Of a stretch of 64,000 nucleotides of DNA, positions 10,009 to 30,209 are shown one piece after another. The DNA is taken from positions 3,424,001 through 3,488,000 of the forward strand of contig OZ219791.1 in the NCBI GenBank assembly GCA_964291215.2, written 5' to 3'. Every line of letters starts with the position of its first letter. The stretch's first letter is position 1. Source of the DNA: Alphaproteobacteria bacterium. GTDB lineage: Bacteria > Pseudomonadota > Alphaproteobacteria > MPNO01 > UBA830. The translations under genes were made by a program, and so were the position numbers. A model generated the notes under the pieces. That model searched no databases. It was not told where the DNA came from and saw nothing but the letters and a program-made list of their open reading frames with translations.

Positions 10009-10084
10009 CCCTGGGGGCTGCCCTCCAGAGAGATACGCCTGCGTTCCGAATCCGCATCGTGGGTGCCGGGAGGGCTACGCTGGC

Positions 10085-11275: not shown

Positions 11276-11302
11276 GTCGCGGCTCCTTCCCCGTGGCTGA
11301 CG

Positions 11303-12016: not shown

Positions 12017-12458
12017 GTTACGGTCTCCATCGAGGATGATCATCGGATCCTCGATCATACGTCCGGATTGGGCGCCGGCCAACATGCGCCAGCATTTTCT
12101 CGAGTTACGGTTGATGATGTCGGGGCGTTGGCGGCGACCGAGGCCCCGTGTCCGCGCTCCTTGCCGTCGACGGGGCGGAACTGGCACGCCTCTCGCCGGG
12201 ATGACAGATTCTGATTTCCGGGTCCGGGAAATTCCGGCACACCGCGGAGCCCACGGACGGAGAAAGATGGCTCTGACCGCGGGCATTGGTTTGGATGGCA
12301 GGCGGGTTTTTGCTATAGACAGGCAGACTGACAACCAGCGGCAAGCGTCGCAGGGAGCGTCCCTGAGGTTTCGTGACGGGTGTACGGCCCGACTTCCGGC
12401 CGCGGTCGGCATGGAAGCCGGTCGGGGCCGTAGCACCGGAACGAGCTGAGGAGCGAAG

Positions 12459-13031
12459 ATGTCTGCCAGGAAAAATAGCGGCGTTTCCGCACCGGTCTGG
12501 TTCACGATCGTGACCGTGCCGAGGGTGATTATCGGCCTGGTCATCCTCGTCGGCATCGCGATCAATTTTGCGAACGTGATCGGACGCTATGTCTTTCTCG
12601 AACCCATCATTTGGGCAGAGGAGATCATGATCTACATCATGGTCTGGACCGTTTTCATCGGAGCCGTCCTGGTGTCATTCGAGGGGCAGCATCTGAAGAT
12701 GGACTTCTTTTCGGTCATGCTCCCGTCGCCGTGGAAAGAGATCATCAACTTCGTCGCCACCATCGCGATTCTCGCCGTCTGCGTCTTCGTTATTCCGCAG
12801 AACTGGACGGTTGTCGAGTTGATGTGGAACAACGACCAGCGCAGTGTGGTTGCCGAGGTTCCAATGGTAATTCCGCACTTTGCGCTGCTATTGGGCTTCG
12901 TTCTCATTTTCGTGGCCATCGTGGTGCGTTTCAGATCGCATATTACGGGCACTCTGTCGAGCGAGGTCGATGAGATCGTCGAGGAATATGGCGGCGATAT
13001 CGACGCGCCTGCCGGGTTGTCGGAGAAGTAG
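12459..13031 (+). CDS. dctQ: TRAP transporter small permease
   Basis: Four TM segments, NVIGRYVF...WAEE...GAV...HL.MD pattern. Confidence 0.85.
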   Translation: MSARKNSGVSAPVWFTIVTVPRVIIGLVILVGIAINFANVIGRYVFLEPIIWAEEIMIYIMVWTVFIGAVLVSFEGQHLKMDFFSVMLPSPWKEIINFVATIAILAVCVFVIPQNWTVVELMWNNDQRSVVAEVPMVIPHFALLLGFVLIFVAIVVRFRSHITGTLSSEVDEIVEEYGGDIDAPAGLSEK

Positions 13032-13067
13032 ACCGGCCGCCGACATCAAGTTACAGGGAGAGTTTTC

Positions 13068-14342
13068 ATGGAATGGGTAATGGCGGTCGTCCCGGTAGTT
13101 CTGTTGTTGCTGGGATTCCCCATCTTCGTGATCCTGCTGGCGACGCCGGCGATCATCCTCCTGATTTTCGCGCCGGTGCCGCCGATGGCGGTGCACATCA
13201 ACATGTTTGGAAGCGTTGACAAATTTGCGCTGATGGCAGTGCCGTTCTTCATCTTTGCCGGAGAGCTGATGGGCCATGGCGGAATCTCGAAGCGAATTGT
13301 CGCCTGGGTGCTCTCGATCATTGGCGGTGTGCGCGGAAGCCTTGCACTCACCACGGTCGGCACCTGCACCGTCTTCGGCGCGATCTCGGGCTCAAGCCCG
13401 GCAACGGTGGCCGCCGTCGGGCGACTGCTCTACGGGCCGCTCCGCGACGCCGGCTACGACGAGAAGTTCTCAAGCGGACTTCTCGCCTCCTCGGGCGCCA
13501 TCGCCATCGTCATTCCGCCGTCGATCGGCATGATCCTCTACGGCGCGTCGGCCGAGCAGTCGGTGGCCTTGCTGTTCATCGCCGGGATCATTCCGGGCCT
13601 TATCATGGCCGCGCTCATGGCAGCCTACATCTACGCCTTTGCGCTCAGGAGGAACATTCGCGAGGCTGCGGGCTTTTCTTTCGGCGAATTCCTTCGTGCC
13701 AGCAAGGACGGCATCTGGGCGCTCGGCACGCCAATCATCATCCTCGGCGGCATCTATGCCGGCATCTTCTCGCCCACCGAGTCGGCGGGCATAGCCTGCG
13801 TCTATGCGATCATCGTGACCCGCTTCATCTACGGCGATATCGACTGGAAGGGTATCTGGGACGTCTCGGTCAATTCCATGTACCTCACGGCCCAGGTCCT
13901 GATCATCGTTGCCGCCGCCGGCGTGTTCTCCCAGCTTCTGACCATCAGCGGCATTCCGCAGAGCGCTGTCGTCGCGATCAAGGAAATGAATCTCGAACCA
14001 TGGATGGTTCTCCTCGTCATCAACGTCTTCCTGCTGTTCGTGGGCTGCCTGCTTGATCCCGGTTCGGCCATCCTCGTGCTGACGCCGCTTCTTGCGCCGA
14101 TTGCGGCGGCCATGGGGGTCGATCTGATCCACTTCGGGATCATCATGACCGTCAATCTCGCAATCGGCATGTTCACGCCGCCGTTCGGGCTGAACATCTT
14201 CGTGACGCAGGCACTCTTCAAGGTGCCGCTCTCGAGCATCTATCCGGGGCTGATCCCGTTCATTTTCATCAATATCATCGCACTGCTGATCGTAACCTAT
14301 GTTCCGGAACTCTCGCTGTTCCTGACCCGTTACGTCAACTAG
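13068..14342 (+). CDS. dctM: TRAP transporter large permease
   Basis: LMAVPFFIFAGELM, FGAISGSSPA, IIPPSI, FSPTES, GMFTPPFGLN. Confidence 0.92.
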   Translation: MEWVMAVVPVVLLLLGFPIFVILLATPAIILLIFAPVPPMAVHINMFGSVDKFALMAVPFFIFAGELMGHGGISKRIVAWVLSIIGGVRGSLALTTVGTCTVFGAISGSSPATVAAVGRLLYGPLRDAGYDEKFSSGLLASSGAIAIVIPPSIGMILYGASAEQSVALLFIAGIIPGLIMAALMAAYIYAFALRRNIREAAGFSFGEFLRASKDGIWALGTPIIILGGIYAGIFSPTESAGIACVYAIIVTRFIYGDIDWKGIWDVSVNSMYLTAQVLIIVAAAGVFSQLLTISGIPQSAVVAIKEMNLEPWMVLLVINVFLLFVGCLLDPGSAILVLTPLLAPIAAAMGVDLIHFGIIMTVNLAIGMFTPPFGLNIFVTQALFKVPLSSIYPGLIPFIFINIIALLIVTYVPELSLFLTRYVN

Positions 14343-14404
14343 CACGCGGGTCGGCGCCGCGGCACGGCCGCCGACCCGGGCGCTGTCGTGGCAGGTGAAG
14401 GCAG

Positions 14405-15289
14405 ATGACGGAGAATCGCAGGCTGGGCCTGCTTGCGCTTGCGCTGACCATATTTTGCTTCGGGACGCTGTGGACCGCGGGCAAGTTCGCGATCGATCAT
14501 GTCCCGCCGCTGTGGTTTACGGCCGGTCGCTTCGCCATCGGCGGCCTCTTCATTGCATCACTGCTTGCGCTCCAGGGCCGGCTGCGGCTGCCGGCCCGCG
14601 CCGACATCCCGATCATTCTAAGCGTTGGCGGCTTCATGTTCGGCGTCTACTCCTCAATTTTCCAGAGCGCCCTGGAATTCGTCCATGCCGGCCGCGCTAC
14701 GATCCTCGGCTACACGACGGCAATCTTCGTGACGCCGGCCGCGGTACTGTTCCTCGGCGAACGCCTGTCGGGCGTAAGATTCACCGGCCTCATAGCGGCG
14801 ATCGCCGGATTTCTCGTCCTGTTCAACCCGCTGGAGCTCGACTGGTCGGACCGCGAGGTCCTGGTCGGCAACGCCATGATCGTGTTCTGTGTAATCATGT
14901 GGTCGGGCGTCATCCTCCATATCAGGGCTCACCGCCAGGTCTCGGATACGCTGCAGCTGGTCCCGTTCTTCCTGCTGGTTGCCTGCACGGTCGCGACATG
15001 CTCGGCCCTGGTCTTCGAGGGCCTGCCGGATTTCGAGGTGACCGAGACCGTCGTCTGGCTCTATCTCTATTCTGGGGCGATCGCGAGCGGCCTCGGCAAC
15101 TGGGGCGTGACCACGGCGATACGGAACCTGCCATCAGCGGTTTCGACGGTCGGCCTTCTCGGCGTGCCGGTGCTTGCGCTCGTTATCAGCATCTTGTTTC
15201 TCGGGGAGGTTCTGACCTGGTCGCTGGGCGTGGGGATCGTGTTGATCACCGCGGGAATTACCATCGTCACACTATCGAAGGACAGTTGA
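14405..15289 (+). CDS. DMT/EamA family transporter
   Basis: About 10 TM helices, two EamA repeats (FLGERL / FLGEVL). Confidence 0.85.
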   Translation: MTENRRLGLLALALTIFCFGTLWTAGKFAIDHVPPLWFTAGRFAIGGLFIASLLALQGRLRLPARADIPIILSVGGFMFGVYSSIFQSALEFVHAGRATILGYTTAIFVTPAAVLFLGERLSGVRFTGLIAAIAGFLVLFNPLELDWSDREVLVGNAMIVFCVIMWSGVILHIRAHRQVSDTLQLVPFFLLVACTVATCSALVFEGLPDFEVTETVVWLYLYSGAIASGLGNWGVTTAIRNLPSAVSTVGLLGVPVLALVISILFLGEVLTWSLGVGIVLITAGITIVTLSKDS

Positions 15290-15302
15290 GGGAGACAGCT
15301 GC

Positions 15303-16052
15303 ATGCTTGCAGACAGAACCATCATCGTAACCGGCGCGGCGAGCGGAATTGGGCGCGCCTGCGCCACGCGCCTTCTCGAACAGGGCAACCGCGTGGTTGC
15401 CGTGGATCTCGGCCGCGACGCTCTCGAGGCGGAACACGGCGGCGAGACCGGCAGCCTCAGGCTGATCGCGGGCGATGTCGCGCTGCCGGAAACGGCGGCG
15501 CGCGCCAGCGCCGCGGCGGTATCCGAATTCGGAGGCGTCGATGGCCTTGCCCATTTCGCTGCAGCGCACTCGAAACTCGACTGGCAGAAAGCGGATGCCG
15601 GGGAGTTCAACCGCATCCTCTCGATCAACGTGACCGGGTCGTTCCTCATGGCCAAGGCGGCGGCCGAGGCGATGATCGAGCGCGGCATCCGCGGCGCGAT
15701 GGTACTGACCGCGTCGGGCGGCGTCCTGATGGGCGGCACTGGAGAGCAGGGACGCGGGGGTCCCGCCTACACGACATCGAAGGGCGGTGTACTGATTCTC
15801 GTCCGCTGCCTTGCAAAGTCCTGGGGATGCCATGGCATCCGCGTCAACGCCTTGAGCCCCGGTGTTGTCGAGACGGCGATGACGTCGAACTACACGGCCA
15901 AGGCCAAGAGGGACGCGGCGGCGCGCGCTGCGCTCGGCCGGATTTCTCAGCCTGAGGACCAGGCGGCCACCGCCATCTGGTTGCTGTCCGACGACGCAGC
16001 ATTTATCACCGGTGAGAATGTCAACGTCAATGGCGGCGCGGCCTTTGGCTAG
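15303..16052 (+). CDS. SDR family oxidoreductase
   Basis: TGAASGIG, YTTSKGG, IRVNALSPG. Confidence 0.9.
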   Translation: MLADRTIIVTGAASGIGRACATRLLEQGNRVVAVDLGRDALEAEHGGETGSLRLIAGDVALPETAARASAAAVSEFGGVDGLAHFAAAHSKLDWQKADAGEFNRILSINVTGSFLMAKAAAEAMIERGIRGAMVLTASGGVLMGGTGEQGRGGPAYTTSKGGVLILVRCLAKSWGCHGIRVNALSPGVVETAMTSNYTAKAKRDAAARAALGRISQPEDQAATAIWLLSDDAAFITGENVNVNGGAAFG

Positions 16053-16085
16053 GCTGCTGGTTCCGCATACCTGGGTTCGTGCGCG

Positions 16086-16352
16086 TTGCGAAAGATTCCT
16101 GGAGGCCGCGGTGCAGCAGCCGTCGCCGTCGTGGTTGGAACAGGTTCGCGGGTGCGAGGGCGGGATGAGCGGGTATCGATGTCGGAATCGCTGGCCCGCA
16201 GGTTTGCCCGCGACGGTTTCGGCGTATTGCGCCGAATGGCGGAGGCTGTCAGCCTTGACTTCGGAAACCCGGATGTCCTAGGGTTTTTGACACCCGTCAC
16301 GGTCGGTATGGTGCCGTTCGCGGAGGATCCGTCCGACGGTGTCAGCGCTTGA
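16086..16352 (+). pseudogene. Possible degenerate SDR N-terminal remnant
   Basis: AVVVGTG...ESLARRFARDGF resembles an SDR Rossmann start; the rest is missing. Confidence 0.3.
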
Positions 16353-16437
16353 GCAGGTGGGATCAGAGGCACACCGGAACCGGCTCTTGCAGTGGTAGGG
16401 AAGCGTCAGTCTAGCAACTCGACGAAAGGGAGGGAGC

Positions 16438-17478
16438 ATGTTTCTTAGAAACGCCTGGTATGTTGCCGCCTGGGAGGCCGAGATCGGCGCCCAGCCCTTT
16501 GCACGCACGATTCTCGGCGACCCTGTCGCTCTTTTCCGCACGGCCGACGGCGAAATCGCAGCCCTCGAGGACCGATGCTGTCACCGCTCACTGCCCCTGT
16601 CGCTCGGAACGGTAGTCGGCGAACGCATTCAGTGCGGCTATCATGGGCTCGAGTTCAATCGGTCGGGAACCTGCGTGAAGGTGCCCGGCCAGTCGAAGAT
16701 TCCGCCAGGAGCCAAAGTTCGCGCCTACCCGGTGGTCCGGCGCTACGGATGGGTGTGGATATGGCCGGGCGATCCCGACAAGGCCGACGAAGCGCTGCTT
16801 CCCGACTGGTGGTGGTGCGAGAGCCCGGAATGGAAAACGATCCCGGGCCGCGACAGCACGCCGCTGCATGTGGAGGCAAACTACCTGCTGATTTCCGATA
16901 ACCTGTTCGACATCACCCATCTTGCCTATGTCCACACCTCGTCGATCGGCAATCTCGACATCATGGATTTTCCGGTCAAGACGCAGCGCTTCGACCGCCG
17001 CGCTGTAATGACCCGGTTGGTGCTCGACCGTCCGCCCGCACCGTTCTACAAGAAGGCGGGGGGATTCGAGGGCAATGTCGACCGCTGGCTGATCACCACC
17101 TCCGACCTTCCATGCTACATCGTCAATGACGCGGGATCGGTCGAGGTCGGCACCGGCATCACGCCCGGCGAGGCCGACGAGGCCAGGGGAGTCGAGATGA
17201 AGGTTATGAACGTCCCGACACCGGAGACGGACACCTCGACCCATTATTTCTACGCCCATGCGCGGCATTTCAAGATAGATTCGGAGGAGTGGGACGAGAT
17301 CTACCGCGCCGAGTTCATGGGCGTGTTCGACGAGGACAAGGTCATCCTTGAGGCGCAGCAGCGAAATATGAGCGGTCTGAACGGGGCGCACGAGATCGAC
17401 ATCAACGGCGACGCGCCCAATATTCTGGCGCGGAATATGCTCGACGAGCTGATTGCCGCCGAGCAGCGGCAGTCGTGA
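16438..17478 (+). CDS. Rieske non-heme iron oxygenase (VanA-like demethylase family)
   Basis: MFLRNAWYVAAW, CCHR...CGYHG Rieske motif, DNLFDITHLAYVH iron site. Confidence 0.9.
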   Translation: MFLRNAWYVAAWEAEIGAQPFARTILGDPVALFRTADGEIAALEDRCCHRSLPLSLGTVVGERIQCGYHGLEFNRSGTCVKVPGQSKIPPGAKVRAYPVVRRYGWVWIWPGDPDKADEALLPDWWWCESPEWKTIPGRDSTPLHVEANYLLISDNLFDITHLAYVHTSSIGNLDIMDFPVKTQRFDRRAVMTRLVLDRPPAPFYKKAGGFEGNVDRWLITTSDLPCYIVNDAGSVEVGTGITPGEADEARGVEMKVMNVPTPETDTSTHYFYAHARHFKIDSEEWDEIYRAEFMGVFDEDKVILEAQQRNMSGLNGAHEIDINGDAPNILARNMLDELIAAEQRQS

Positions 17479-18680
17479 GTGCGGATCAGGAGCAGGACAT
17501 AGTGCCGGGACCGCTTGATAGGGTGCGCATCCTCGAACTGACCACGATGATCACGGGATCATTGTGCGGTCAGATGCTGGGTGATCTTGGCGCCGATGTT
17601 ATCAAGGTCGAAAAACCCGATGGCGGAGACATGTTCCGGGCGTGGCGCGGCGGGACATATTCAGGGCAGTTTACCGCCTACAACCGGAACAAGCGCTCCA
17701 TCACGCTCGACCTTCGAAGCGATGAAGGGCGCGAGATCGTGCTGCGGCTGGCCGAACGGGCGGACGTGTTGATCGAGAATTTTCGCCCCGGCGTCATGGA
17801 ACGGCTCGGATTGTCGCTCGATGTCCTACGCTCGAGAAGTCCGAATTTGATCTATTGTTCGATCACGGGGTTCGGAGAGGACGGGCCGTACGACAAGCGC
17901 CCCGCCTACGACGCGGTGGCGCAGTCGCTGTCGGGAATCACCAGCCTGTTCGTCGATCCCGAGAACCCGACGATCACGGGACCGACAATCGCCGACAACA
18001 TGACCGGCATTAACGCTTGCTACGGCATTCTTGGTGCGTTGTTCGAGCGCGAGCGCGGGCGGGTACCGAGGCGAATCGACGTCAACATGATCGAGAGCGC
18101 GATCTGGTTCATCCCCGATCCGTTCGCCAACATGGTCTTGCAGGGAATCGAGCAGGGGCCGCTAGCCCGCGTCCGCGCCTCGCAGTCCTATGGGATGGCC
18201 TGCAAGGACGGGAAGTTGCTTGCGGTCCATCTGTCATCGCCGGAGAAGTTCTGGCTCGGGGTCACGGCTGCCTTCGGGCTCGAACACTTGCGTGACGATC
18301 CCCGATTTCATGAACGCATGCTCAGGATGGACAACTATCTCGAACTCCACGGAGAGTTCAAGACGATGGCGAAGACAATGCCACGTGATCACTGGACGCC
18401 GCGGCTGGAAGCGAATGATGTGCCCTATGCGCCGATCAACACGCTGGAGGACGTGTTCGGTGATCCCCAAGTCCGGCACCTCGGAACCTTCGCCGAAGTA
18501 GAACAGCCGGGCAAGGGGCGTCAGAAATTCGCCCGGCGCGCGGTCTGGTACGACGGCTCCCGGGACGACCAGCCCCTTGACCTGGCGCCGTTCCTTGGCG
18601 AGCACACAGACGACGTGTTGGCAGAACTCGGGCATGACGCCGGCGAGATCGCGGCGCTTCGTGATAAGGGCGTCATCTGA
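17475..18680 (+). CDS. CaiB/BaiF family III CoA-transferase
   Basis: LGADVIKVE, NRNKRSITLDL, ENFRPG, SITGFG..GP. Confidence 0.92.
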   Translation: MSADQEQDIVPGPLDRVRILELTTMITGSLCGQMLGDLGADVIKVEKPDGGDMFRAWRGGTYSGQFTAYNRNKRSITLDLRSDEGREIVLRLAERADVLIENFRPGVMERLGLSLDVLRSRSPNLIYCSITGFGEDGPYDKRPAYDAVAQSLSGITSLFVDPENPTITGPTIADNMTGINACYGILGALFERERGRVPRRIDVNMIESAIWFIPDPFANMVLQGIEQGPLARVRASQSYGMACKDGKLLAVHLSSPEKFWLGVTAAFGLEHLRDDPRFHERMLRMDNYLELHGEFKTMAKTMPRDHWTPRLEANDVPYAPINTLEDVFGDPQVRHLGTFAEVEQPGKGRQKFARRAVWYDGSRDDQPLDLAPFLGEHTDDVLAELGHDAGEIAALRDKGVI

Positions 18681-18844
18681 CAGCTCCCAATCCCGGAGCG
18701 CCGCTGGCAGTGTGTACCGCCCTATCGGATTTTCCTATGCTTCCTTGAACCTAAAGACCTCGTTAGTGCCTGCGCTCGTCAGCCCCTATTCCGATGGCCG
18801 AAAGCACTGCAACATCGCGCACAACGCCGTCATGGCGGGCTTTT

Positions 18845-19430
18845 TCATAGCGCGCATCCAGGATCAGGTATTTCATCAGGGGCCGGTTGCGCGGCGAGTT
18901 CTTCGTCGAGCAACCTGGTGGCCCGGCTGACCTGAGAAGAGGACAGGCTCCCGAACTCGCGCATTACATTCTGCCATGTGGAAACACCCTTGATGTACAT
19001 CTCGGCTACGGCGCGAGAAGATCGCTGGCCGCGTTCAAGCGACTGGGGACGGGTCGTCCCCGTGACTGGCCCTCTTTGGCACCTGAACGGTAACAGTGGG
19101 GGTGTCGATCCGCTTGTAGCCGTTGGCATAGCCCTGTTGCTCCGGCGTCTGGTGGCCCGCTTTCAAGTGCTGCTCGCGCTCGATTTGCATCGCAAGCTCG
19201 AAGAGCTGGCCAAAGACCCGCCCCAGATCCGTTGCTCCGTTTGCGATCAGATGTTCCAAAACAGTCCCGATCGTCGTAGTGTGTCGCAGGTCCATTCGCT
19301 TCCTCCATGAAGGTTTTCCAACTCCATGGGATAGTACGATGGCGCCGCGTTTCACTGGGGGCTAGCCCCCCAGTGAAACGCCTCAAAGCGCAAACCTCAG
19401 ACAAATTTCCAGACATCAAGTTACAGTACC
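18845..19430 (-). mobile_element. IS256-family remnant (left end and eroded transposase N-terminus)
   Basis: ANGYK.IDTP, AEMYIKGVST, SSSQVSRA fragments; terminal sequence at 19401-19430 shares AATTTCCAGACATCA with the IS256 end at 50258-50287; palindrome at about 19350-19379. Confidence 0.8.
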
Positions 19431-19631
19431 TGCTGCGCGACGGCGAAATAGTGGCTTGAAGCCGACAAAGGCGTTGCATAAGCTCGATGTTGAAGGAACT
19501 GAAGCTGTTCCCAGGCGGAATCGAGAGGGGCAGAGGGGAAAAATTTGCGCAACATCCGGCCCTCATCTCCGTTCGGGCTACGCCCTCACTGCGATGAGGG
19601 CCGGATGTTGCACTTCAGACTGGAAGTGGGG
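19431..19631 (+). mobile_element. IS30-family right-end fragment (inverted copy of 24547-24722)
   Basis: Near-identical reverse complement of 24547-24722, ending TGTTGCACTTCAGACTGGAAGTGGGG; contains a long GC hairpin. Confidence 0.85.
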
Positions 19632-19820
19632 TCAATTACCTATCGGGAACTCTTACGTTCCGGTCACCATTCAAAAGCTTCCCTCCATGAGTTGAGCAAC
19701 ACGGCGGGAGCCGTTGTGGTAGCGATTGTGGGTACTTTATTAACCACGAGGTTTACCTCTGTCAGCAATCTGTCGGGCTCGTGTAAAGGAGACGAATGAC
19801 GCAGGGCGACAAGAGGGCGA

Positions 19821-20692
19821 TTACGCCTGTCCGGGGACAGAAAGGCGATCGAGGTCGAGGTGGTCACTCTCGACGTAATCACGGGCCGTCATGTCCTCCA
19901 GGCGGTCGGCGGATCGAGACGGAATCGGCCGGTCTGGTCGAAGAAGGCAAGCCACTGATCCATGTGCGTCGGCCAATCGGCCTCAGCGTCCGCGGGATCG
20001 GCGTCCTTGATGAACCACCAGCTAAGCTGGATCTCGGCGTCGTCCCAGGACGGCGCCGCGCGGACCCTGATTTCGCGCAGCGCCCGAAGATGGGCGCCCT
20101 CGTCGGTCTCCTTGTCGTGCTTGTCGACAAGGCGCCTTTGCAGGACCTCGGCCGCGGCGACGAAATCGTCGGGAAAGGCGAAGCGGGACCTCTTGCGAGA
20201 AAGGGCCAGGGCAATGGCCCGCAACTCTTCGTCGGTCTCCCAGCCGGGCGTGCGGGTCCATCGAGCGACAAGGGCCTTCTCCACGGTCATGGTGCGGTCG
20301 AGGTCGGCGACCAGGCGGTCGCCGGCGACGGCCGGCACGTAGGCGAAGGCGGGGCGCTTGAGGCGGCGGACGGCCTCGACCCACTCCTCGGACACCTCGA
20401 TCAGGGGCGCGACTTCGACGAAGGGCCGGGAACGGCAGCTCCGGACGACATCGCAAGTCTGGCTGAGCATGACCATGTCGCGGGCTTCGTCTAGGATCGG
20501 CGTGGGACCGTCCTCAATGGGCTTGCCGTCATTGGCCATGGCCTCGGCGATTTGGTTGGACGCCGGGCTATGCGGACGGGTGAGGTCGGCGAGATGAAGG
20601 AACTCCAGGCCGGCGTCCAGGGAAACATCTCCCTGGCGCCAAGCCTGGAGGGCCTCGTCAATCGCCCGCTCGTCCTCTTCCATCAAAGGCAT
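19821..20692 (-). CDS. Hypothetical protein with PemK/MazF-like N-terminal motifs; 3' end probably frameshifted
   Basis: WRQGDV...VMLSQTCDV...VEVAPL...VADLDR...RSRFAFPDDF; the ORF stops at 19889, but a shifted frame continues LEDMTARDYVESDHLDLDRLSVPGQA* to 19821. Confidence 0.6.
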
Positions 20693-20698
20693 GAAGCA

Positions 20699-21370
20699 TC
20701 ATCCCCTCTTCTTGGGCGTCTGCTTCGCGTGGGCGGTTCGAGCCTTGGCCGGAACGTCGGGCCGCTCTTGCTCGGCCTCCAGGAGAAGCGTTGGCGCTTG
20801 CGGCCGGCGCGCGTCCTGGGCCTCCCGAGACAGCGGGACGCGGCGGGGTGCGGGCGGCCGGATGCCCGCGGCGCGCGCCATGGCCTCGTCGAAGCGGCCC
20901 TTCTTGAAGAGGTCGAGGGCGGAAACGCCCGTGGCGGTGTCCACGGCCAAGAGTTGGGCGCGGGTGCCGGCCTGGTTGCCCTGGTCGAGGCGGCGGATGG
21001 CGGCCAGCATCCGACGAATCGCTTGGTCGTGCCTGGCGGAGACGGCCTTGCCGCTGGCCCAATGGTGGACGCTCCGGCGCGAGACATCGAACAGGTCGCT
21101 CAGCTCCTCCCAGGTAAGGCCGGATCGGCGGCGGATTTCCAGGACGGCCTCGGCCGTGAACTCCGCGGCCACGTGGTCGATCTGACCAGCGGGGCCGGCG
21201 GCCGTCCGTTCGACGAATCGGGGAAAGTCGTAAGTGCTCGCGGTCGCCGATCCTGACAGACCAGTGACAACGAGCAAGGCCGCGAAAGCGGCATCAAGGC
21301 CGGGGCGATACATGGAGCCGACCGCGGACGTGTGCGTGGCTGGCATGTCTCGGAGTGCTGGCGCAGTCAT
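20699..21370 (-). CDS. XRE/Cro-like HTH protein with hydrophobic N-terminal segment
   Basis: EIRRRSGLTWEELSDLFDVSRRSVHHWASGK HTH; 4-nt overlap with the upstream gene. Confidence 0.75.
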   Translation of the reverse strand: MTAPALRDMPATHTSAVGSMYRPGLDAAFAALLVVTGLSGSATASTYDFPRFVERTAAGPAGQIDHVAAEFTAEAVLEIRRRSGLTWEELSDLFDVSRRSVHHWASGKAVSARHDQAIRRMLAAIRRLDQGNQAGTRAQLLAVDTATGVSALDLFKKGRFDEAMARAAGIRPPAPRRVPLSREAQDARRPQAPTLLLEAEQERPDVPAKARTAHAKQTPKKRG

Positions 21371-22185
21371 AACTCACCTCCGTAAAATCTCAGGAACTCG
21401 TCCGTGACCACCTGGCGGAAGAGCCAATAAAGACATGTGGCGAATCCGGTGGCGGTTGTCAGCAACTCTTCGCTCGCAAAGGGTCGCGGCTCCGACGTGA
21501 ACATGTCCAAGTCGAGCACCCAGCTCGGCTCACCGATCGGCTCAAGGGCGTCGGGATCATAGGTCGCGTTCGGCGGCAGTTGACCCCAACATCCCTGGAC
21601 GAGGGCGGCGTCCGGAGCCAGGAATTGCGCCTCGGTCATCAGGTGGATGATCGAATCGTCGAGCGCAAAGGGCGGGTCGTCGGCGGGACGCATGATGCTC
21701 AGGATCTCGCGCTGGATCAGGTCGCCGACGCGATCGACGGCCTCGCCGGTCAGGCGGTCGATGTAGCGCAAGCCGAGGCGCTTGGCGTCCGCGGGCTTGA
21801 ATGCCTCCTCGACCGCGGAAACGACGGCGCGAAGCCGGCCCAGAAAATCGGCTCGGCTGTCATAGTCCGAGGTTTCGAGGGCCACGAAATCTACGCCGAG
21901 GGACACGCGCCACGACGGGTCCGCCTCGCTGTCGGTAAGGCGCCAGACGATACCCTGGCGGACGTTCGGGGTCTGGCCGGCGGTCAGCTCGATGCGGTGA
22001 ACCTGGTCCTCGCCGAGATACGGATAGGTCGCGCGGAGGGCTTCCTGGAAGACGGCAACCTTGTCGGGGTTACGGATCGCCAGGATGGGCGAAAACCGGG
22101 CCTGCGCGATCACGCGCGCCAAGGGCGCCCGGGGTAGCGGCACCTCGGGCGTGGGCGTGGGGTTAAGCGGCCACGGTTCCTTCAT
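21367..22185 (-). CDS. TIGR04255 family protein
   Basis: PRAPLARVIAQARF, ALETSDYDS..DF, KRLGLRYIDRL, WVLDLDMF, VTDEFLRFYG; AAGGAGG RBS before the ATG at 22185. Confidence 0.8.
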   Translation of the reverse strand: MKEPWPLNPTPTPEVPLPRAPLARVIAQARFSPILAIRNPDKVAVFQEALRATYPYLGEDQVHRIELTAGQTPNVRQGIVWRLTDSEADPSWRVSLGVDFVALETSDYDSRADFLGRLRAVVSAVEEAFKPADAKRLGLRYIDRLTGEAVDRVGDLIQREILSIMRPADDPPFALDDSIIHLMTEAQFLAPDAALVQGCWGQLPPNATYDPDALEPIGEPSWVLDLDMFTSEPRPFASEELLTTATGFATCLYWLFRQVVTDEFLRFYGGEL

Positions 22186-22323
22186 GTCGGTGTCCTCCTT
22201 GCCTCCGTAGATATGTGAAGTATAATATGAAGTATCACCTCTTGAAAAGGACTTAACGTCGCACCAGATGTGAAATATTGTGTGAGGCAAAGGTTCGACA
22301 GGCCGACAGAAAAAAAATTTCTT
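22186..22323. promoter_or_regulatory. AT-rich divergent promoter region between the TIGR04255 operon and CBASS
   Basis: TATAAT at 22221; repeats TGAAGTAT (22216, 22228) and TGAAATAT (22271). Confidence 0.5.
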
Positions 22324-23580
22324 ATGGAATTTCAATAGCTTGTCCGGGGTCTGCTCGGCAATCTCAGCCCCCTCGACGTGATGCTCGCCGAGATCGCGCT
22401 GCGGATTCAGCTCAGCCCCACGGATCACGGCAAGGCGGTCGGTCGGTACGAGACGGTGAGCGACTGGATCGACCGGCCCGATAGTCCGCTTTGCGGCCTG
22501 GTCGAGCTGACGTACGCCCAAGGCTCGATGGCCATTGATGCCACGATCGCCCGGTGCTCGGATCGGGACGAGTACGACATCGACGCGATGGCGCAGCTCG
22601 GCCTGCCTCGGGACACCGATCCCGAGATCGCGCTGTCGCTGCTGGAGACGAGCATCCGGGGCGAACGCGGCTCGCGCTACTACAACATGACCACGCGCCG
22701 GACCCGGTGCGTCACGATCGAGTACGCGGACGGGATGCACCTAGACGTGACGCCGGCGATTCTCTTGCCGGACCTGATCGAGCGGACCTCGTTCATCTTC
22801 CACTTCAAGCCCGAGGACCCGAGAGAGCCCAAGCTGCGGCTCCACGCCAATCCCTATGGCTTCGCCGGGTGATTCAAGGAGATGACGCCGGCCGACGTGG
22901 CGTTCGCCGAGTATTTCGAGCGGCGCTCCCTGGAGGAGGCGCGGATTCGCGCCATGGCCAAGGGCGAGACGGAGCCAGTGCCGAACCAGATGCCGGCCTA
23001 TCGCAAGTCGATGGCCTTGATCGCGCTCCAGCTCATCAAGCGCTACCGCAACGTGCGCTATGAGCGCCGGCCCAGCCTGCGGCGGCCGCCGTCGGTGCTG
23101 CTGTGCAAGTATGTCGCCGACCACGCGAACCGGACGACGACGCTGGCGGAGGAGGTGCTGCATCAGGCGTCGGCCATGCTGGATATTTTCGAGGCGGCGC
23201 ACCGGGCCGGCCGGTTCGTCCACGAGGTGAACCCGAGGTGCCTGACCGACGTGCTGACCGATCGCTGGTCGGCGAGCGCGGAGGACCAGGCCCGCTTCAT
23301 CGCCGACCAGCGCGAACTGACCCAAATGCTGGTGCGGCTCCTGGAGGGCGTGCCGCTGGAGGAGATGCGGAAGACTCTCGAAGACCTGTTCGGCGAGCGG
23401 CCGGCGCGCGATGTCGTGTCGGACTACATCAAGCGCTACGGCTGGCAGGTGGGACACGGGGGCGGCGCTCACCTGCCGAGGATCGGACAGGTCCCGGCGG
23501 CCGGCGTGATGCTCGGCTCGATGCCGACGGCGGCGCGAAGCACGCCGGGGCACCGCTTCTTCGGCGATGAACCGGAATGA
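22324..23580 (+). pseudogene. CBASS CD-NTase (cGAS/DncV-like nucleotidyltransferase) with in-frame stop(s)
   Basis: QGSMAIDATI...EYDID, RCVTIEYADGMHLDVTP, ANPYGFAG*FK (TGA 22870-22872 where Trp is expected), RPPSVLL, C-terminal HRFFGD; ORFs 22378-22872 and 22882-23580 are in frame; possible second stop TAG at 22336. Confidence 0.85.
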
Positions 23581-24385
23581 CTTGGCTGACCGTCCAGGAG
23601 CAGGACCGACGGATTCGGGAGGTCTTCCCGGAGTTCAAGCTGACCCTGAACGCCGGCTGGATGGCAGTGTGGGAGGGACCGCTGACGCCGATCATGCGGC
23701 GTTATCGCGTCCGCGTCGTACATTTCCGGCGCCGGTTCTTCGACACCTGGTCGCTGGAGAACGACTATGCCGCGGTCCAGGTGGTCGATCCCGTGATCGG
23801 GCTCGACCCGCGCGGCACGAGGCAATTGCCGCCGCACATCTACTTCAACATGGCCAACCCGCCATGTCCCCGGCTTTGCCTGTACGACCCGAAGGAGAGG
23901 CTTTGGGCCCCGGAGGAATACATCGCGGACACGATCATCCCCTGGACCATCGACTGGCTGTTCTTTTCGAGGGCTGGCTTGATACGGGGACGTGGGAAGG
24001 CGGGGGACGACACCCGGAGAGAAGGTCAAGCTCATGCCCCAGAACGGACGCCTCGGACCCGGAGAGCCGCGATCGGTTGGATCGCTCCGTCGCCGCCGGG
24101 TTCCACAGGCTTGGCCAAAGGATCGGCGTTTTCGCATCCTTTCCATTGATGGAGGTGGCATCCGAGGGGTGTTTCCCGCCACTCTCCTGGGAGAGCTGGA
24201 GCGGCGGCACACCGGTGGCCGACCGATTGGCGAGTATTTTGATCTCGTCGCCGGCACCTCCACGGGCGGCATCCTTGCCCTTGGCCTTGCGGCGGGGCTC
24301 ACGGCCGGGGAGTTGCAAGATCTTTATGTCCGGTGCGGACCCGAAATCTTTCCGCGTCTCGTCGGAGGCTGGCTTGGCCGCGTGA
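23577..24385 (+). pseudogene. Bacterial E2-like (Cap2-type, E2-only) protein, frameshifted
   Basis: WEGPLTP, LPPHIY, RLCLYDP...W, TIIPWTIDWLFF; a 1-nt loss near 23968 would restore FFYEGWLDTGTWEGGGRHP; 3' boundary uncertain. Confidence 0.75.
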
Positions 24386-24546
24386 TCGGCTGGCTGACCT
24401 GGCCCTAGTACCTGGGCAACGCCCGTTACGACCGGAAAGCACTGAGCGAGATACTCGGCGAGACGCTGGGAGACCGAACCATTGGCGACGCCAAGGTGCG
24501 CCTGTGCGTCCCGTGCTTCGACGGCCGGAATAGCGAGGTCTATGCT
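24034..24546 (+). pseudogene. CBASS patatin-like phospholipase effector (CapV-like), nonsense mutation and IS-truncated
   Basis: ILSIDGGGIRG, FDLVAGTSTGGILA; TAG at 24406-24408, then RYDRKAL...VPCFD, cut by the IS30 end at 24547. Confidence 0.85.
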
Positions 24547-25711
24547 CCCCACTTCCAGTCTGAAGTGCAACACCCGGCCCTCATCGCAGTGAGGGCCGGG
24601 TGTTGCACAAGTTTCCCTCTCTGCCCCTCTCGATTCCGCCTGGGAACAGCTTCAGTTCCTTCAACATCGAGCTTATGCAACGCCTTTGTCGGCTTCAAGC
24701 CACTATTTCGCCGTCGCGCGGCATGGACCCTGCTGCACGTTGCGGCTGCGGAACATGGCGCAGATGGTCAGGGCGGTTTCACTTCAAGATTACCTCCGTC
24801 GGCGATCCCAGGACTTTCCGAGTGTTGAGCCGCACCTTCTGAACATCTTCGTTGCATGTCGCGCGAAAGTCCGTGCCCTTCGGGAAGTACTCCCGCACCA
24901 GGCCGTTGGTGTGCTCATTCAAGCCGCGCTCCCAAGAATGGAAAGGCGAAGAAGAAATCTGCGTCAAGTGCGACGCGCCTGTGGTCTGCGAACTCCTTGC
25001 CGTTGTGATTGTGTGGACCAATAGCGCACCAGAGCCGAGCAGGCGGATCATGACCGAACCGACCGGGTCTTTCTGTCCACCCGGCAAGGTGTATTTCGTG
25101 GCACGAGCGACACGACAGCTCCACTGTGAGCTTTGCCGATGATGGCTCCCAGTCGCCGATCCGTTCCTTTGCCTCCGCAGGGCGCTCGGAAATGTCCACC
25201 CGGCCGGAATGGCATCCGCCCTTCCAGTTCGGCTTCTTGCCGCGCCGCCGAAGCTTCAAGGCGCCCCCAGCTCTCCGATCTTCGGCGATCATAGATCCGT
25301 TGCCGACCCACGGCCTTCCAGTCGAAAACGGCCGCTGCTCGGGGCCCTCCCGCAGCTTTTTCTGAGCTTCAGCTCGAGGCGTCAACCGCCAAGAAACAGA
25401 CGAGGCGGCCCTGCGTTTCTGCCATCCTTTGCGCCTGCTTGTGACGGTAACCCCGTCCCCCGGTGTTGCGCTTGATCTCCCGGAAAATTGTTGATCGGCC
25501 CAGCTGCCGAGCAATCGCACCTTGTGAAAGACCGCTTTTCTGCCTCAATCTGGCATCGCTCTTCGTAGGTGACGGTAGCCTTTGGACATGAACAAGCTCC
25601 CTCCATCTTGTACAGGAACTCTCGCCGCTGCTGGACAGCTCCGCAACATCATGCGTCTAAAAACACATGGCCACAGCCCATCATGTGTTGCACTTCACTA
25701 TGGAACGGGGG
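24547..25711 (-). mobile_element. IS30-family element, eroded transposase
   Basis: 26-bp imperfect TIRs (CCCCACTTCCAGTCTGAAGTGCAACA / TGTTGCACTTCACTATGGAACGGGGG); fragments ISERP..RIGDWE, NGKEFADH, HSWERGLNEHTNGLVREYFPKGTDF. Confidence 0.88.
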
Positions 25712-25766
25712 GGGGGGTCATTTCCGCGCCGGCATGTTAAGTATGATTCATTGATAGAGGGGGACT

Positions 25767-25799
25767 GATCAAGTCAACTCACGAGGTCAGGACGTCTGA
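25767..25799 (+). repeat. Orphan terminal repeat, 31/33 identical to 43506-43538
   Basis: GATCAAGTCAACTCACGAGGTCAGGACGTCTGA versus GATCAAGTCAGCTCACGAGGTCAGGACATCTGA. Confidence 0.7.
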
Positions 25800-26125
25800 A
25801 TTTTCCGCGCCGAGAAGGTCTCATTGAGCCTTGGCGGTACGATTGCAGCGCGACGCAGACCGAACAATCTCGCCGGTCGCCGCTGGATTAGCAGCGTGGG
25901 ATCGTCGTGGCACCGGGCCGTGCGCGGAAGCGGGTGACAGGCCGGGAGGCGATGGCGCCAACAGTCGGGTCCCATCCTGCCGGGGATATGTCCATCCCGT
26001 CAAGGCCGGATGCCGATTGACAGCCGGCTGTGTACGCCCCACACTGCCAATGCTGACTTTGGCGTCTGGCGTCGCCCGGAGCGCAATCGTCAGGATCCGT
26101 CATGAAATGCAACGGGGGCCTGTCC

Positions 26126-26890
26126 ATGGCAGTGGTCGTTCCGACTAACAAGTCCGTGGAAACGCTCGAGGGCATTCACCTTTACCACGGGGGCATTTCG
26201 AACTGCTCGATGTGGGTCCGCATGACGCTGATCGAGAAGGGTCTGCCTTGGACTGGTCACCATCTCGACCTGAAGCTCAAGGAAAACATTTCGGGCGAGT
26301 ACTTCGGCATCAATCCGAACGGTCTAGTGCCGACTCTGATCGACAATGGCGTCGTCCATATCGAATCCAACGATATCATCGACTATCTCGACGAAACCTA
26401 CCCCGACCCCTCGCTGCGCGCCTCTGGCAATGAAGACGAGATGCTTGAATGGCTTCGTCTTTCAGCGTCCATCCACGTGCCGGCGATCAAGCCGTATGTC
26501 TACGCGACCAAGATGCAGAAGAAATTGAAGAAGACTGCCGAAGAGCAAAAAAAGTACGACGAGCTTCAGAAGAACGAGGAGATGAAAGAATTCCACGCGA
26601 AACATGCCGGTGGCAGCCAGTTCGGCGAGGAGGATATTGCCAAGGCAAAGGAGATACTTGAGGGGTGTTTCACCAAACTCGAAAACACCCTGGAGGGCCG
26701 TGAATGGATCATGGGCGATCAGTTCACCCTGGCTGACATTTCCTGGATCCCCACGCACTTCGTGCTCGAAGGATGCGGCTATCCGTTCAAAGACTACCCG
26801 AACGTTCTGTGCTGGGCGGCGGCTTTTCAGGACCGGGAGAGCTACAGGGGCGGTATCCTGAAGTGGTGCCCGGATTTCTCAAAAGTCTGA
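26126..26890 (+). CDS. Glutathione S-transferase family protein
   Basis: LYHGGISNCS, INPNGLVPTL, IESNDIIDYLD, FTLADI. Confidence 0.9.
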   Translation: MAVVVPTNKSVETLEGIHLYHGGISNCSMWVRMTLIEKGLPWTGHHLDLKLKENISGEYFGINPNGLVPTLIDNGVVHIESNDIIDYLDETYPDPSLRASGNEDEMLEWLRLSASIHVPAIKPYVYATKMQKKLKKTAEEQKKYDELQKNEEMKEFHAKHAGGSQFGEEDIAKAKEILEGCFTKLENTLEGREWIMGDQFTLADISWIPTHFVLEGCGYPFKDYPNVLCWAAAFQDRESYRGGILKWCPDFSKV

Positions 26891-26997
26891 GTTTCCGGCA
26901 GCGATAAGGCACTCTGATTTCCCGAACCGAACAGCGGGATGTGCAGTCAGGGTAGTCGCCTTCTGTAATCGGGTCCGTAGTCAAGCAGCCCCTCGGA

Positions 26998-28127
26998 CCC
27001 TATCAATCTAACGTACTTAACTCCGTGTCTTTATCTCCTTCCGAGTGGTTCTCGTCCCAGTCCTCCTTGGCCCGAATGCCGATGACGGCCTGAGACAGGA
27101 ACCTGACGCCCTCCCATAGCTTCTGTGTGCCGGGCAGCGGCTGGCGCTTCGAGGGATGGAAGCCGGCCAGCCCGCCGGTGAGCGCGACGAAGCTCATGAT
27201 GGTCATGTCCGGCGGTGCCCGGGGAAGCTTGATGCCGTAATAGGTGGCGAGGGCGCAGAGCGCCGTGATGTCCTCCCTCGTGACATACTGTTTGGTCGTT
27301 CGGCCTCTCGCGGGCCAGGATGGAGAGGTCCCAGACCCGGAACGCGGCGTCGAAAGCGAAGCACTTCTTCAGATCGTCGGCCGCGTCGGCGGTCCTCGAT
27401 GCGGGTGCCGACCTTCAGAGCGTGGAAGAAGCGTTCGATCTTCCAGCGCAACTCGTACCAGCGCAAGATGGTGCGAGCGGTCTTGCGATCGGCCTCGGTG
27501 GTCAGCAACATCCAGGGCTCGCCCTTCTTCCCCGCCACGAGGTGATGGGGCGGGTTCTCCTCAAGGGCGGAGACCGCGATCATGCGAATCGGCCCCTCGC
27601 CCCCTTCGGGGCAACCAGGTCCACGGGCGTGCAGCACAGCGTCAGCTTCGCGGCCCTTCCTGCGGTTCGGACCGCCGCAGGCGGGAACCACGATCCGGCA
27701 CCTGGGCTCCGTTTCCAGCACATGGTCCCAGAGGTCTGCGTCGCCGCCCGAACGCAGCGCCACCCGGCGCTGCCTTCCCCGACTCGCCCGGATCAGCAGC
27801 GCTGCCCCGGTTTCCTCGGCCCGCGAGATCATCTCCCAGAAGTCGCCCTCGCGGTCGCAGACCGTCACCACGCGGGTGTCGTCCAGACAGGCGCGCGCAA
27901 GTTTCTGCGCGCGGTCGAGGATCCAGCGGACGCTGTCCTTGTCCTCAGCCTGGCGGAAGTCGGCGGCCGCTTCGAACATTCCGAGCGGCCCGCGTTCACC
28001 GCCATGCCGACCAGGATGCCCGAGGTGCCCTTGCCGCCGCCGCCGCCGAGGTCGTCGAGGCCCGATGTCCCCGACAGGCCGTCGTAGGTGTCCTGCACGG
28101 CCAGCACCAGCCGCTCTGCGCGGCACC
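26998..28127 (-). mobile_element. IS4-family (IS50/Tn5-like) transposase remnant
   Basis: LAVQDT, VCDREGDFWE, WYELRWKIERFFHALKVG, GFHPSKRQPLPG, split across several frames. Confidence 0.82.
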
Positions 28128-28201
28128 GCTCCGCAACATCATGCGTCTAAAAACACATGGACACAGCCCATCATGTGTTGCACTTCACTATGGAACGGGG
28201 G
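28128..28201 (-). mobile_element. IS30 left-end fragment (direct repeat of 25638-25711)
   Basis: 74-bp near-identical repeat ending TGTTGCACTTCACTATGGAACGGGGG. Confidence 0.85.
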
Positions 28202-28229
28202 TGATATAGAAGGGACGAAGAATCTCGCT

Positions 28230-29769
28230 TTGGGGCGGGAATTGGCCGATCAGACCGGGAATCCGCCGGATTTTCGGAAAACTTCGCGAGAATTGCCATG
28301 CGAAACGTCATCAGCCCGCAGCTGGAATTGGGTCAGGTTGCGATCGAGAAGATCGATCTCAGCGAAAACTCGCGGGATGACATCCCACCGATGCTGCGCG
28401 GGATTCAGCACGTGTATGCCGACCCGGCTGTTCAAGATCCTGGAGGAGGGGATTCTTCCGAGAGTGTCCCACAGGAAAGGGCGTCCCGGCGCTGTGGAAG
28501 ATCCTGGTGTCCTGAAGCAGGGCTTGGGGTATGACCTTGATCATCTGCACGAGCTGGTGAACGAGACGGTTCGCAAGTTCCTGGACCACGGCGATATCCG
28601 GGACAACACGAGGTACAGCTATCGGACGGTGCTGGAGAACGTCAGCCATCTGACGCCGGAAGTGCTGGAGAAGGTATCGCAGCTGGTGGCGGAGAGCGGC
28701 CATGCGATGGTCCGCAAGAGCAAGTCGGACGGGTCCTTTGCGGGGCCGCTGCGATTCGTTCGTGGTGCACTACCCGACGGACGTCAACCTGCTGCAGGAT
28801 GCGTTGCCTGGTGCGCGGCCGCGCAGCCGTGCTCGCGGGGGTAGCGGCAGTGGTAGAATCGGAACCGCGGGAAGCGCTTTCAGAAGAGACCAGGCGGGCC
28901 TCTTCGGAGGACGGTACCTCGACGACAGTCGGGAGTTGGAGCGCAGGAGACGGTTCCGGCACTTGTGGAGAAGGGCGTCGGGGCCTTCAGGATTCTCAAG
29001 ATCGAATCGTACCTCAACCATGCCCGCCGGCAGATCGACCAGGTGGACCGCCGCCTAAGGCGAGAAGATCCCGCGGGAAGAGAAGGTGTTTTCGATCTTT
29101 GAGGAGCGCTGGTGCGTGAAGGGCAAGTGCCGGTGGAACTCGGCGTGCCGGTGGCCGTGCTGGAGGACCAGCACGGTTTCCTCCTGCACCACCGGATCCT
29201 GTGGGAGGGCAGTGACGTGGACCATGCGGTGCCCATGATCCGGGAAGCACAGGCTCGCTTCCCCGACCTGTGCAGTTTCGATCGCGGGTTCCACAGCCCC
29301 CGGATTGCACTGGACGAGCTGCTGGACGCGCTGCTGAAGAAGGGAAAGCCTGGTCGGGCGGAACGGGAAGCTGAGACGACGTTCCGGGAGATGCGCCGAC
29401 AGCATCCGGTCGTGGGGTCGGCGATCAACAATCTTGGGCAACGCGACATGGACCGGGTCCTGTGGGGTGGACGGCTTTGCGCGGATGGTGGCGCTGTCCA
29501 TGGTCGCCTTCAATTGTCCACCGTCTGCTGCTGCACGGACGGGCCCGACGACGACGAAAACGCGCCGCCTGACGGCGGTGCCCCTCCACCCCACCCACCC
29601 GCCGGGAGCGGGAACGGAGCCGCTCGTCCGGCTTCTCGGCTGGAAGAGCCCTGATACCGCCGCGAATCAGCAGGAATCCCCCGAAAACGGAGCGGGACCC
29701 GGAAGGGCGATCAAACCAGAAATTTCGCCGGAATCTCAGCCAAAACGGTCATTTCCGCGCGGGCACTAA
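28230..29769 (+). mobile_element. IS5/ISNCY-type transposase remnant
   Basis: SRDDIPPMLRGIQH, RCDSFVVHYPTDVNLLQDA, EKVFSIFE, VELGVPVAVLEDQHGFLLHH, SFDRGFHSP; ends GGGCACTAA. Confidence 0.75.
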
Positions 29770-30209
29770 CTCATCGACGCCTCCCGGTTCGGGGTTCGCG
29801 CACTGCGGTCGGATGCTTTGCGCGACATACGCAAGATTGCTACACGGGCTAAAGCCTCGCATTCCGGCGAGGGCTTCAAGCGACTGTTGACAGTACCGCC
29901 GTCTCGGCCCGCGGGTGCTCGGTTCCATGGGTTGCGACAATCCCTGCTACAGCCGTTATCCTTCGTTGTCCAACCGCCAATTCGGAAGGTGCCGAAAGAG
30001 ATCCTGGCCGGACCCAGGGTGGCGATATCTCCGCCGTCGCCGGGGGGGCTTCGTCAGGACATCTCCTGGCCGCGGTCGCATTCCGACGCGTGCGCAGCAG
30101 CTCGGCGCCTGCCTGTCATGCTAAACCTTGCATGGTGCGCAGGAATGTCGATAGTGTGCCGGATCGGGGCTGGGTATGCTGGCCGCGGTCCCGGTACGGG
30201 AGACGCGCA

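Follow-up and report, generated by a model that had tools for sequence, protein, structure and literature searches.

The 64,000-nt stretch analyzed here (the window; positions 3,424,001 to 3,488,000 of contig OZ219791.1, from an alphaproteobacterium) contains on its minus strand a three-gene operon that is real, conserved and apparently undescribed, and that is one member of a larger family of operons led by a gene for a TIGR04255 protein. Gene 1 (21367-22185, minus strand; an open reading frame, ORF, with an NCBIfam match) codes for a TIGR04255 protein of 272 aa; gene 2 (20699-21370, minus strand; an ORF with a weak helix-turn-helix, HTH) for the likely antitoxin, of 223 aa; and gene 3 (minus strand) for the predicted toxin, in an ORF of 267 aa at 19889-20692, or 19821-20692 when its out-of-frame tail is included. 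A first-pass annotation, made from the DNA letters, had described three packed, co-oriented genes with a strong ribosome-binding site, and all of this is present in the sequence: genes 1 and 2 overlap by 4 nt (21367-21370), genes 2 and 3 are spaced by 6 nt (20693-20698) and the motif AAGGAGG is found 8 nt before gene 1 (22194-22200, minus strand). The genome that is the source of the window (G000) contains only one copy of the triad.

Relatives of gene 3 are abundant (1902 matches at 90% clustering, and 1118 among 50% representatives), and the proposed joint conservation of the three genes was borne out. A gene-3 relative is encoded by 220 GTDB stretches, of which the best 80 were used for the locus counts; in 73 of these 80 loci a TIGR04255 gene and an HTH gene precede gene 3, in the same order. 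Of the seven exceptions, three lost gene 1 together with the N-terminal tail of gene 2. The others are one locus at the end of a contig, one where a long, unrelated ORF that by eye resembles a transposase lies immediately upstream, one in which gene 3 is truncated and one in which gene 2 is decayed. TIGR04255 comes first wherever downstream genes were called, and the titles of the records with the triad span Proteobacteria, Binatia, Cyanobacteria, Myxococcota, Acidobacteriota, Actinomycetota, Deinococcota and others. As anticipated, the triad matched no named system in PADLOC. In the open-access literature, TIGR04255 was found in none of the main texts, the supplements of PMC12366544 do not mention it, and we found no described triad of the TIGR04255/HTH/MazF-like type, a statement that for PMC13092281 covers part of its supplement.

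The assignment of gene 1 to TIGR04255 is secure, with 125.1 bits against a cut-off of 30 over positions 2-249 of the 252 in the NCBIfam model. For gene 2, a Cro/XRE-type HTH had been proposed and HTH matches were indeed found, but they are weak: the protein from the window matches the Xre-like HTH PF20432 with an E-value of 4e-4 and a score of 21, below the Pfam cut-off of 25.8, whereas among 58 relatives HTH_3 was retrieved in 56 and PF20432 in 40 (best 2e-5) at E<=0.05. The gene 2 product is organized as a variable Ser/Thr-rich N-terminal tail of ca. 70 aa, the Xre-like HTH, a helical domain and a conserved, Pro/Arg-rich basic C-terminal tail that has no aromatic column among those conserved in at least 90% of sequences. 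Three threonines of the N-terminal tail recur in the 58 relatives (T14 in 51, T43 in 55 and T56 in 55), bearing in mind that the tail is of low complexity and that its alignment may overstate conservation. From its position and its HTH, gene 2 is likely an antitoxin that would also be the repressor of the operon. It resembles the Xre/MbcA/ParS antitoxins of RES-Xre pairs in having a weak Xre-like HTH followed by a helical domain, but differs from them in falling below the Pfam cut-off, in bearing tails at both ends, in having a partner that is not a RES toxin and in the lack, among the 58 relatives, of any match to their C-terminal toxin-binding family.

Gene 3 has no match in Pfam, NCBIfam or PADLOC, and a sequence search of the PDB with its profile found nothing. 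It had been taken for a PemK/MazF-like protein, which the predicted fold upholds, although the usual catalytic residues appear to be absent and the ORF is frameshifted in the window. In an AlphaFold model of a natural relative with 97% identity (P0005; mean predicted local distance difference test, pLDDT, 95.6), residues ~14-172 adopt the MazF/CcdB fold, also found in Kid: Foldseek matched the model to MazF with an E-value of 5.9e-4, and the structure comparison VIA returned MazF/CcdB-fold proteins for the N-terminal domain with Z 8-9.9 (top match, Z 9.9, root-mean-square deviation, rmsd, 2.8, with 102 of 105 aa aligned). The additional C-terminal domain that had been noted is also present in the model, at ~172-285, and may be like a minimal nucleotidyltransferase (MNT); its several VIA matches to MNT folds are weak (Z 4.6-5.9; best rmsd 3.3 over 95 aa); the same region matches the immunity protein MafI at a similarly middling Z of 6.4, and in the relatives of gene 3 there is no conserved acidic pair at 221-225, where, aligning by eye, we presume that the GS...DxD motif of MNT proteins would fall. 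Across 125 sequences, residues W18, Q20-D22, C80, D81, K139 and R170 hardly vary. Going by the model, gene 3 is built like a toxin of the MazF superfamily but cannot be filed as MazF. It shares the predicted fold of residues ~14-172 with the MazF/PemK/CcdB toxins (PDB 8zws, 4mzm, 1vub), and departs from them in the fused MNT-like domain, long insertions, the near-invariant Cys80-Asp81, Lys139 and Arg170, and the apparent loss of the catalytic Arg and Thr. It is a two-domain protein of ~290 aa with an HTH partner, and not a single domain of ~110 aa with an antitoxin of the MazE/AbrB type.

The triad is one version of a wider family. TIGR04255 was present in 22 of 301, 27 of 351, 16 of 251 and 17 of 151 sampled genomes, counts that include the centre genomes and of which the first two come from overlapping samples. 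We retrieved 93 TIGR04255 loci from three phyla and discarded four (two split-gene duplicates and two centre genomes selected by way of gene 3); the 89 that remain include the window. A simple caller, which made a few wrong calls at broken loci, identified a second gene in 88 of these and a third in 84, and the gap between genes 1 and 2 is between -20 and +15 nt in 78 of the 88. No result here uses L198, from the unpublished genome G040. Third genes could be classified in 78 of the 89 loci (11 were not): 27 are of the MazF type, 36 are ADP-ribosyltransferase (ART)-like, five peptidase-like, three HEPN-like, one HicA-like and six fall in two unassigned groups. The MazF-type genes are either long (13) or short (14), and hhalign relates both to the gene 3 profile (98.9% and 98.1%, respectively). 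The ART-like genes were called by clustering (24), by profile (4) or by eye (8), and the label rests on an R-S-H motif recognized by eye because a sequence search of the PDB with the profile found nothing; the peptidase-like, HEPN-like and HicA-like labels were also given largely by eye, with one HEPN-like gene showing a Pfam E-value of 0.006. Almost none of the toxin and antitoxin candidates of the family score above the Pfam cut-off.

Each type of third gene tends to be paired with its own type of second gene. On a quick IQ-TREE tree of 77 TIGR04255 proteins the third-gene labels need 17 changes, compared to a minimum of 7 and a mean of 39 for shuffled labels; for the ART-like label and for the short MazF label, five or more changes each are required by well-supported branches. 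The antitoxin-toxin pairs were therefore inherited together with gene 1 and yet were repeatedly swapped. Second genes of the type designated here WDGY match the PADLOC candidate PDC-M32A (best E-value 1e-11). As a separate observation, the WDGY-motif domain (exemplified by L015:2301-2810 and found in eight similar second genes) corresponds to the C-terminus of PDC-M32A and is accompanied by ART-like partners, being the commonest version of the family. Five unannotated third genes contain conserved His-His-Cys motifs and look peptidase-like by eye (L001:273-935, L002:386-1072, L109:2756-3397, L110:2737-3408 and L172:295-954).

Two further candidates for a named counterpart were compared. PADLOC PDC-M32 shares the domain of the WDGY-type second genes and, in one case, also an ART-like third gene, but it is a two-gene candidate that has no TIGR04255 protein match and lacks the HTH/MazF version of the window. 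DS-42 (PRO1) is a validated three-gene defence unit of Escherichia coli (PMC13092281, Tables S6 and S8). As given in those tables, it consists of an unknown protein of 238 aa, a protein of 190 aa whose N-terminus is Ser/Thr-rich by eye, and an effector; unlike the MazF-fold gene 3, however, this effector is an MBL hydrolase, and the tables do not annotate the first protein as TIGR04255. Among 51 TIGR04255 members there was no NCBIfam match of the DS type at E<=0.01.

We propose that the three genes form one mobile cassette, led by TIGR04255 in a coupled operon, that would function as a tripartite toxin-antitoxin anti-phage switch. In it, the antitoxin would be stable as long as its Ser/Thr-rich N-terminal tail is bound by the TIGR04255 protein; once a phage protein dislodged the tail, the infected cell would lose its antitoxin and be arrested by the toxin. 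We give somewhat better than an even chance to such a switch, patterned on the toxin-antitoxin-chaperone (TAC) systems, in which TIGR04255 would both act through the N-terminal tail to protect the antitoxin and sense the phage. The layout of the genes, their conservation, the swapping of modules and the frameshift are read from the sequences and the folds are predictions, whereas toxicity, the antitoxin role, the binding of the tail and the sensing of phage are inferred. With the TAC systems HigBAC, MqsRAC and CmdTAC/PD-T4-9, as presented in the parts used here of PMC11618068 and bioRxiv 10.1101/2024.02.24.581848, the triad has in common the three-gene operon, the swappable toxin-antitoxin unit and a single constant third protein, as well as a long extension of the antitoxin that looks unstructured and the occurrence of ART-type toxins among the partners. 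In contrast, the TIGR04255 gene is first while the constant gene of TAC systems is last; TIGR04255 proteins measure ~250-280 aa and gave no SecB match; and the tail of the triad is N-terminal and Thr-patterned whereas the TAC element is C-terminal and aromatic. The logic would be that of TAC, but the order of the genes is inverted, the tail is on the opposite terminus of the antitoxin, and no SecB match was detected for the third protein. The tripartite toxin-antitoxin-accessory architecture that had been envisaged fits, and fits a much wider TIGR04255 family, but by the features tested the triad is not a TAC member; it is a variant of tripartite toxin-antitoxin systems.

Several patterns around the tail are consistent with this proposal. 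Ser and Thr are more frequent in the first 45 residues than in the rest of the protein in 32 of 35 WDGY-type second genes and in 24 of 29 of other types, and there is no such excess at the N-termini of the products of genes 1 and 3. In the three loci that retain the HTH but have no gene 1, the tail of gene 2 was lost as well (3/3, a small number). These loci (L035:9122-9991, L041:6194-6718 and L052:9487-9991) are possible natural two-gene derivatives; the remnant in L035 is in frame with fragments that look helicase-like by eye.

Other results weigh against the proposal. We take the catalytic Arg and Thr of MazF to correspond, in a register set by eye, to positions 71 and 98 of gene 3, where Arg occurs in 22 and Thr in seven of 125 relatives; toxin or RNase activity is uncertain because the usual catalytic residues appear to be absent. 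Within the HTH class, to which the triad of the window belongs, the Ser/Thr excess of the tail does not reach significance (10/16, p 0.16), and the enrichment counts include kin that are not independent. The best whole-domain fold match of TIGR04255 is an enzyme domain and not a chaperone. Only one viral contig carries gene 3, with the full triad present there, and many copies of the triad are located among housekeeping genes. Finally, the enrichment in defence islands that had been listed as a check was not significant in the raw data: in the flanks of 20 of the 80 loci, compared with 20 fixed-position control regions that were not matched by taxon, PADLOC matched 25 of 148 proteins near the triad and 17 of 147 in the controls (p 0.24). 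It appears only after curation by eye, keeping near-full-length and defence-specific matches, and then in 10 of 20 loci versus 2-3 of 20 controls (p 0.014-0.04).

That lack of significance is also what would be seen if the triad were a selfish addiction or stress module that stabilizes mobile DNA and has no anti-phage role. MazF-type systems do have roles other than defence. The block in the window is bounded by insertion sequences (IS), some copies of the triad are on conjugative plasmids or beside an integrase, and relatives of gene 3 occur on six plasmids, two of which were opened and have the full triad. Conversely, a simple addiction module needs no dedicated third protein, one copy lies within a BREX operon, flanked by pglX and pglZ (L106:3002-14625), and other copies are near restriction-modification and AbiE genes. 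DefensePredictor also rates TIGR04255 as defensive: Table S4 of PMC13092281 includes at least eight TIGR04255 clusters among predicted defence genes, with log-odds of 4.7-9.3, one of which starts with the same residues as gene 1 from an HTH/long-MazF locus (L113). Inclusion there is a prediction and not a validation. On balance, we consider a purely selfish module unlikely. Separately, the unannotated phage record ON170239.1 contains near its end (L253:368-2058) an intact triad of the TIGR04255/WDGY-type/ART-like version. Single-sequence patterns found no relatives of gene 1 in viral contigs.

The structural comparisons of gene 1 bear on whether TIGR04255 is a holdase, as in the proposed switch, or an enzyme. 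Its AlphaFold model (pLDDT 90.6) is a predicted two-lobed beta-sheet saddle, with a first half of strand-helix-four-strand-helix order that aligns with TBP-like domains. Foldseek retrieved nothing from the PDB at E<=0.001, and neither did a sequence search of the PDB with the gene 1 profile; in the ESM Atlas there were only TIGR04255 or hypothetical clusters, with named clusters reaching 0.76 at best. VIA, which itself describes a best Z of 7-8 as usual for chance arrangements, placed guanido-kinase catalytic domains at the top (Z 7-8.3, rmsd ~4), followed by TBP and S-adenosylmethionine decarboxylase (AdoMetDC) at Z 6-7. With a guanido-kinase-like bowl, the protein could set the state of the toxin by covalent modification of the conserved threonines of the tail or, alternatively, by producing or consuming a small molecule. 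Such an enzyme would account for the top whole-domain matches, McsB and arginine/creatine kinase (Z 7.9, rmsd 3.7, 177 aligned residues; Z 8.3, rmsd 3.8, 183 aligned), for the charged strand residues conserved in 85 diverse TIGR04255 members (E24, 0.71; R136, 0.56; R140, 0.65; D225, 0.73; and D227, 0.72) and for the three near-invariant Thr positions in the tail of gene 2. However, by the remark of VIA itself these Z scores are in a range typical of chance, TBP and AdoMetDC are within ~1 Z unit of the guanido kinases, and hhalign of TIGR04255 against 21 McsB proteins gave 0.1%. Moreover, neither the NEED motif nor the arginine cluster, as we understand these kinase motifs, is found among the conserved TIGR04255 columns, so that an enzymatic role is rather improbable. 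From the first phylum tried, 61 genomes yielded no McsB. In the viral structure library BFVD, the best match to gene 1 was A0A515MGR4 (202 aa, unnamed; E-value 1.4e-6, TM 0.48/0.62), which could be a phage-borne relative; the next matches were TBP-like viral proteins.

TIGR04255 might instead be a very divergent, internally duplicated SecB-like chaperone, making the triad an ordinary TAC in reverse order. HicA toxins are linked to TAC chaperones. TIGR04255 has about twice the length of SecB and, in the model, two beta-sheet halves, and it is accompanied by ART-like and HicA-like toxins as TAC chaperones are (CmdTAC, in the part used of PMC11618068). We regard this origin as highly doubtful: the chaperone gene of TAC is the last and its addiction element is C-terminal (bioRxiv 10.1101/2024.02.24.581848), against a first gene and an N-terminal tail in the triad, and the first half of TIGR04255 is the one that aligns with TBP-like domains. 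SecB is not among the matches listed in three fold searches of gene 1, hhalign of TIGR04255 against a profile of 15 SecB sequences gave 0.1-0.3%, and the two halves have no mutual profile similarity. No long TIGR04255 fusions were found among 7995 candidates of 504-2000 aa, which is weak evidence. An unrelated, possibly TAC-like locus was seen in one control region (L239:6682-8672), in which a SecB-like gene (PD-T4-9_C match) is near a small PDC-S09-like gene.

Tentatively, and as a broader possibility that we hold to be less probable than not, the family would represent a tripartite immune switch of a second class, evolved independently and occurring in ~6-11% of sampled genomes in three phyla. 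A non-SecB protein, possibly a guanido-kinase-like enzyme, would read or modify Thr-patterned N-terminal tails grafted on unrelated antitoxins and gate five or more toxin folds, among them a MazF fold with a new Cys-Asp active site that would not be a canonical RNase. If the tail model were true, antitoxins would have become addicted to a sensor on two occasions, and TIGR04255 would serve as a phage sensor of a new, modular kind, pairable with chosen effectors. The comparison suggests a role for the orphan family TIGR04255 and exposes dozens of toxin and antitoxin candidates; the proposal is directly testable with intact copies, such as those from plasmids NC_019699.1 of Chroococcidiopsis thermalis (CHRO_RS28305-28315) and NC_021909.1 of Rhizobium etli (REMIM1_RS28550-28560).

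The copy in the window is probably decaying. Near position 19900 gene 3 has 7 nt fewer than four relatives, and because of these missing nucleotides the ORF terminates at 19889, leaving the final ~25 conserved codons to continue in another frame as far as 19821; close relatives have mostly 287-296 aa. Contigs from runs X2, X6 and X7 and one variant from run X1 carry the 7 nt at this site, and run X1, which may be the source of the window, also yields contigs identical to the window, one of which spans the stop codon described below for the neighboring CD-NTase gene. Runs with small word shares were left aside. Judging from these sequences, the frameshift is probably real in this genome.

The triad is head-to-head with a decayed operon (22378-24546, plus strand) that resembles a cyclic oligonucleotide-based antiphage signaling system (CBASS) and is a neighbor and not part of the triad. 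Both this arrangement and the IS borders had been described correctly: PADLOC matched CD-NTase (Cyclase, 2e-70 and 3e-62), E2-like (2e-27) and patatin (phospholipase, 2e-35) genes, and inverted IS ends flank the block. The CD-NTase gene contains an in-frame stop at 22870-22872, there is, relative to runs X2 and X7, a one-base gap near 23963, and the patatin gene is truncated, ending short ahead of the right IS end. The intergenic region has overlapping divergent sigma-70-like promoter matches (22199-22248, no strand assigned), based only on consensus and numbering 2 against 0.2 expected in shuffled sequences. A 44.9-kb contig from run X2 covers both the triad and CBASS, with 126 substitutions and 22 gap letters, and locus L029 has the same block with 77% identity; triad and CBASS therefore travel together in some lineages. 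Despite this shared block and the head-to-head promoters, the suggestion that the triad regulates the CBASS operon or is accessory to it is largely refuted and very improbable, since CBASS homologs adjoin only one of the 80 gene 3 loci, in a phmmer comparison with the window's own CBASS pieces as the only queries and with some short flanks, for which reason distant cyclases could have been missed. The link with CBASS is incidental, and CBASS is cargo on the same block.

The left (19426-19631) and right (24547-24728) IS ends of this block, neither assigned to a strand, are inverted with respect to each other and 95-98% complementary, and enclose positions 19632-24546; we take the left end to be of the IS256 type. 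Next to it, the stretch 18766-19440 is an IS remnant, with dozens of degraded copies of 88-99% identity across the genome, while fragments of IS30, IS4 and ISNCY transposases occur at 24779-29654. The island is flanked at 9424-18680 and 30090-35130 by intact-looking catabolic and transport genes, labeled by eye as coding for an amidohydrolase, a TRAP transporter, a Rieske oxygenase, a CoA transferase and a hydantoinase-like pair.

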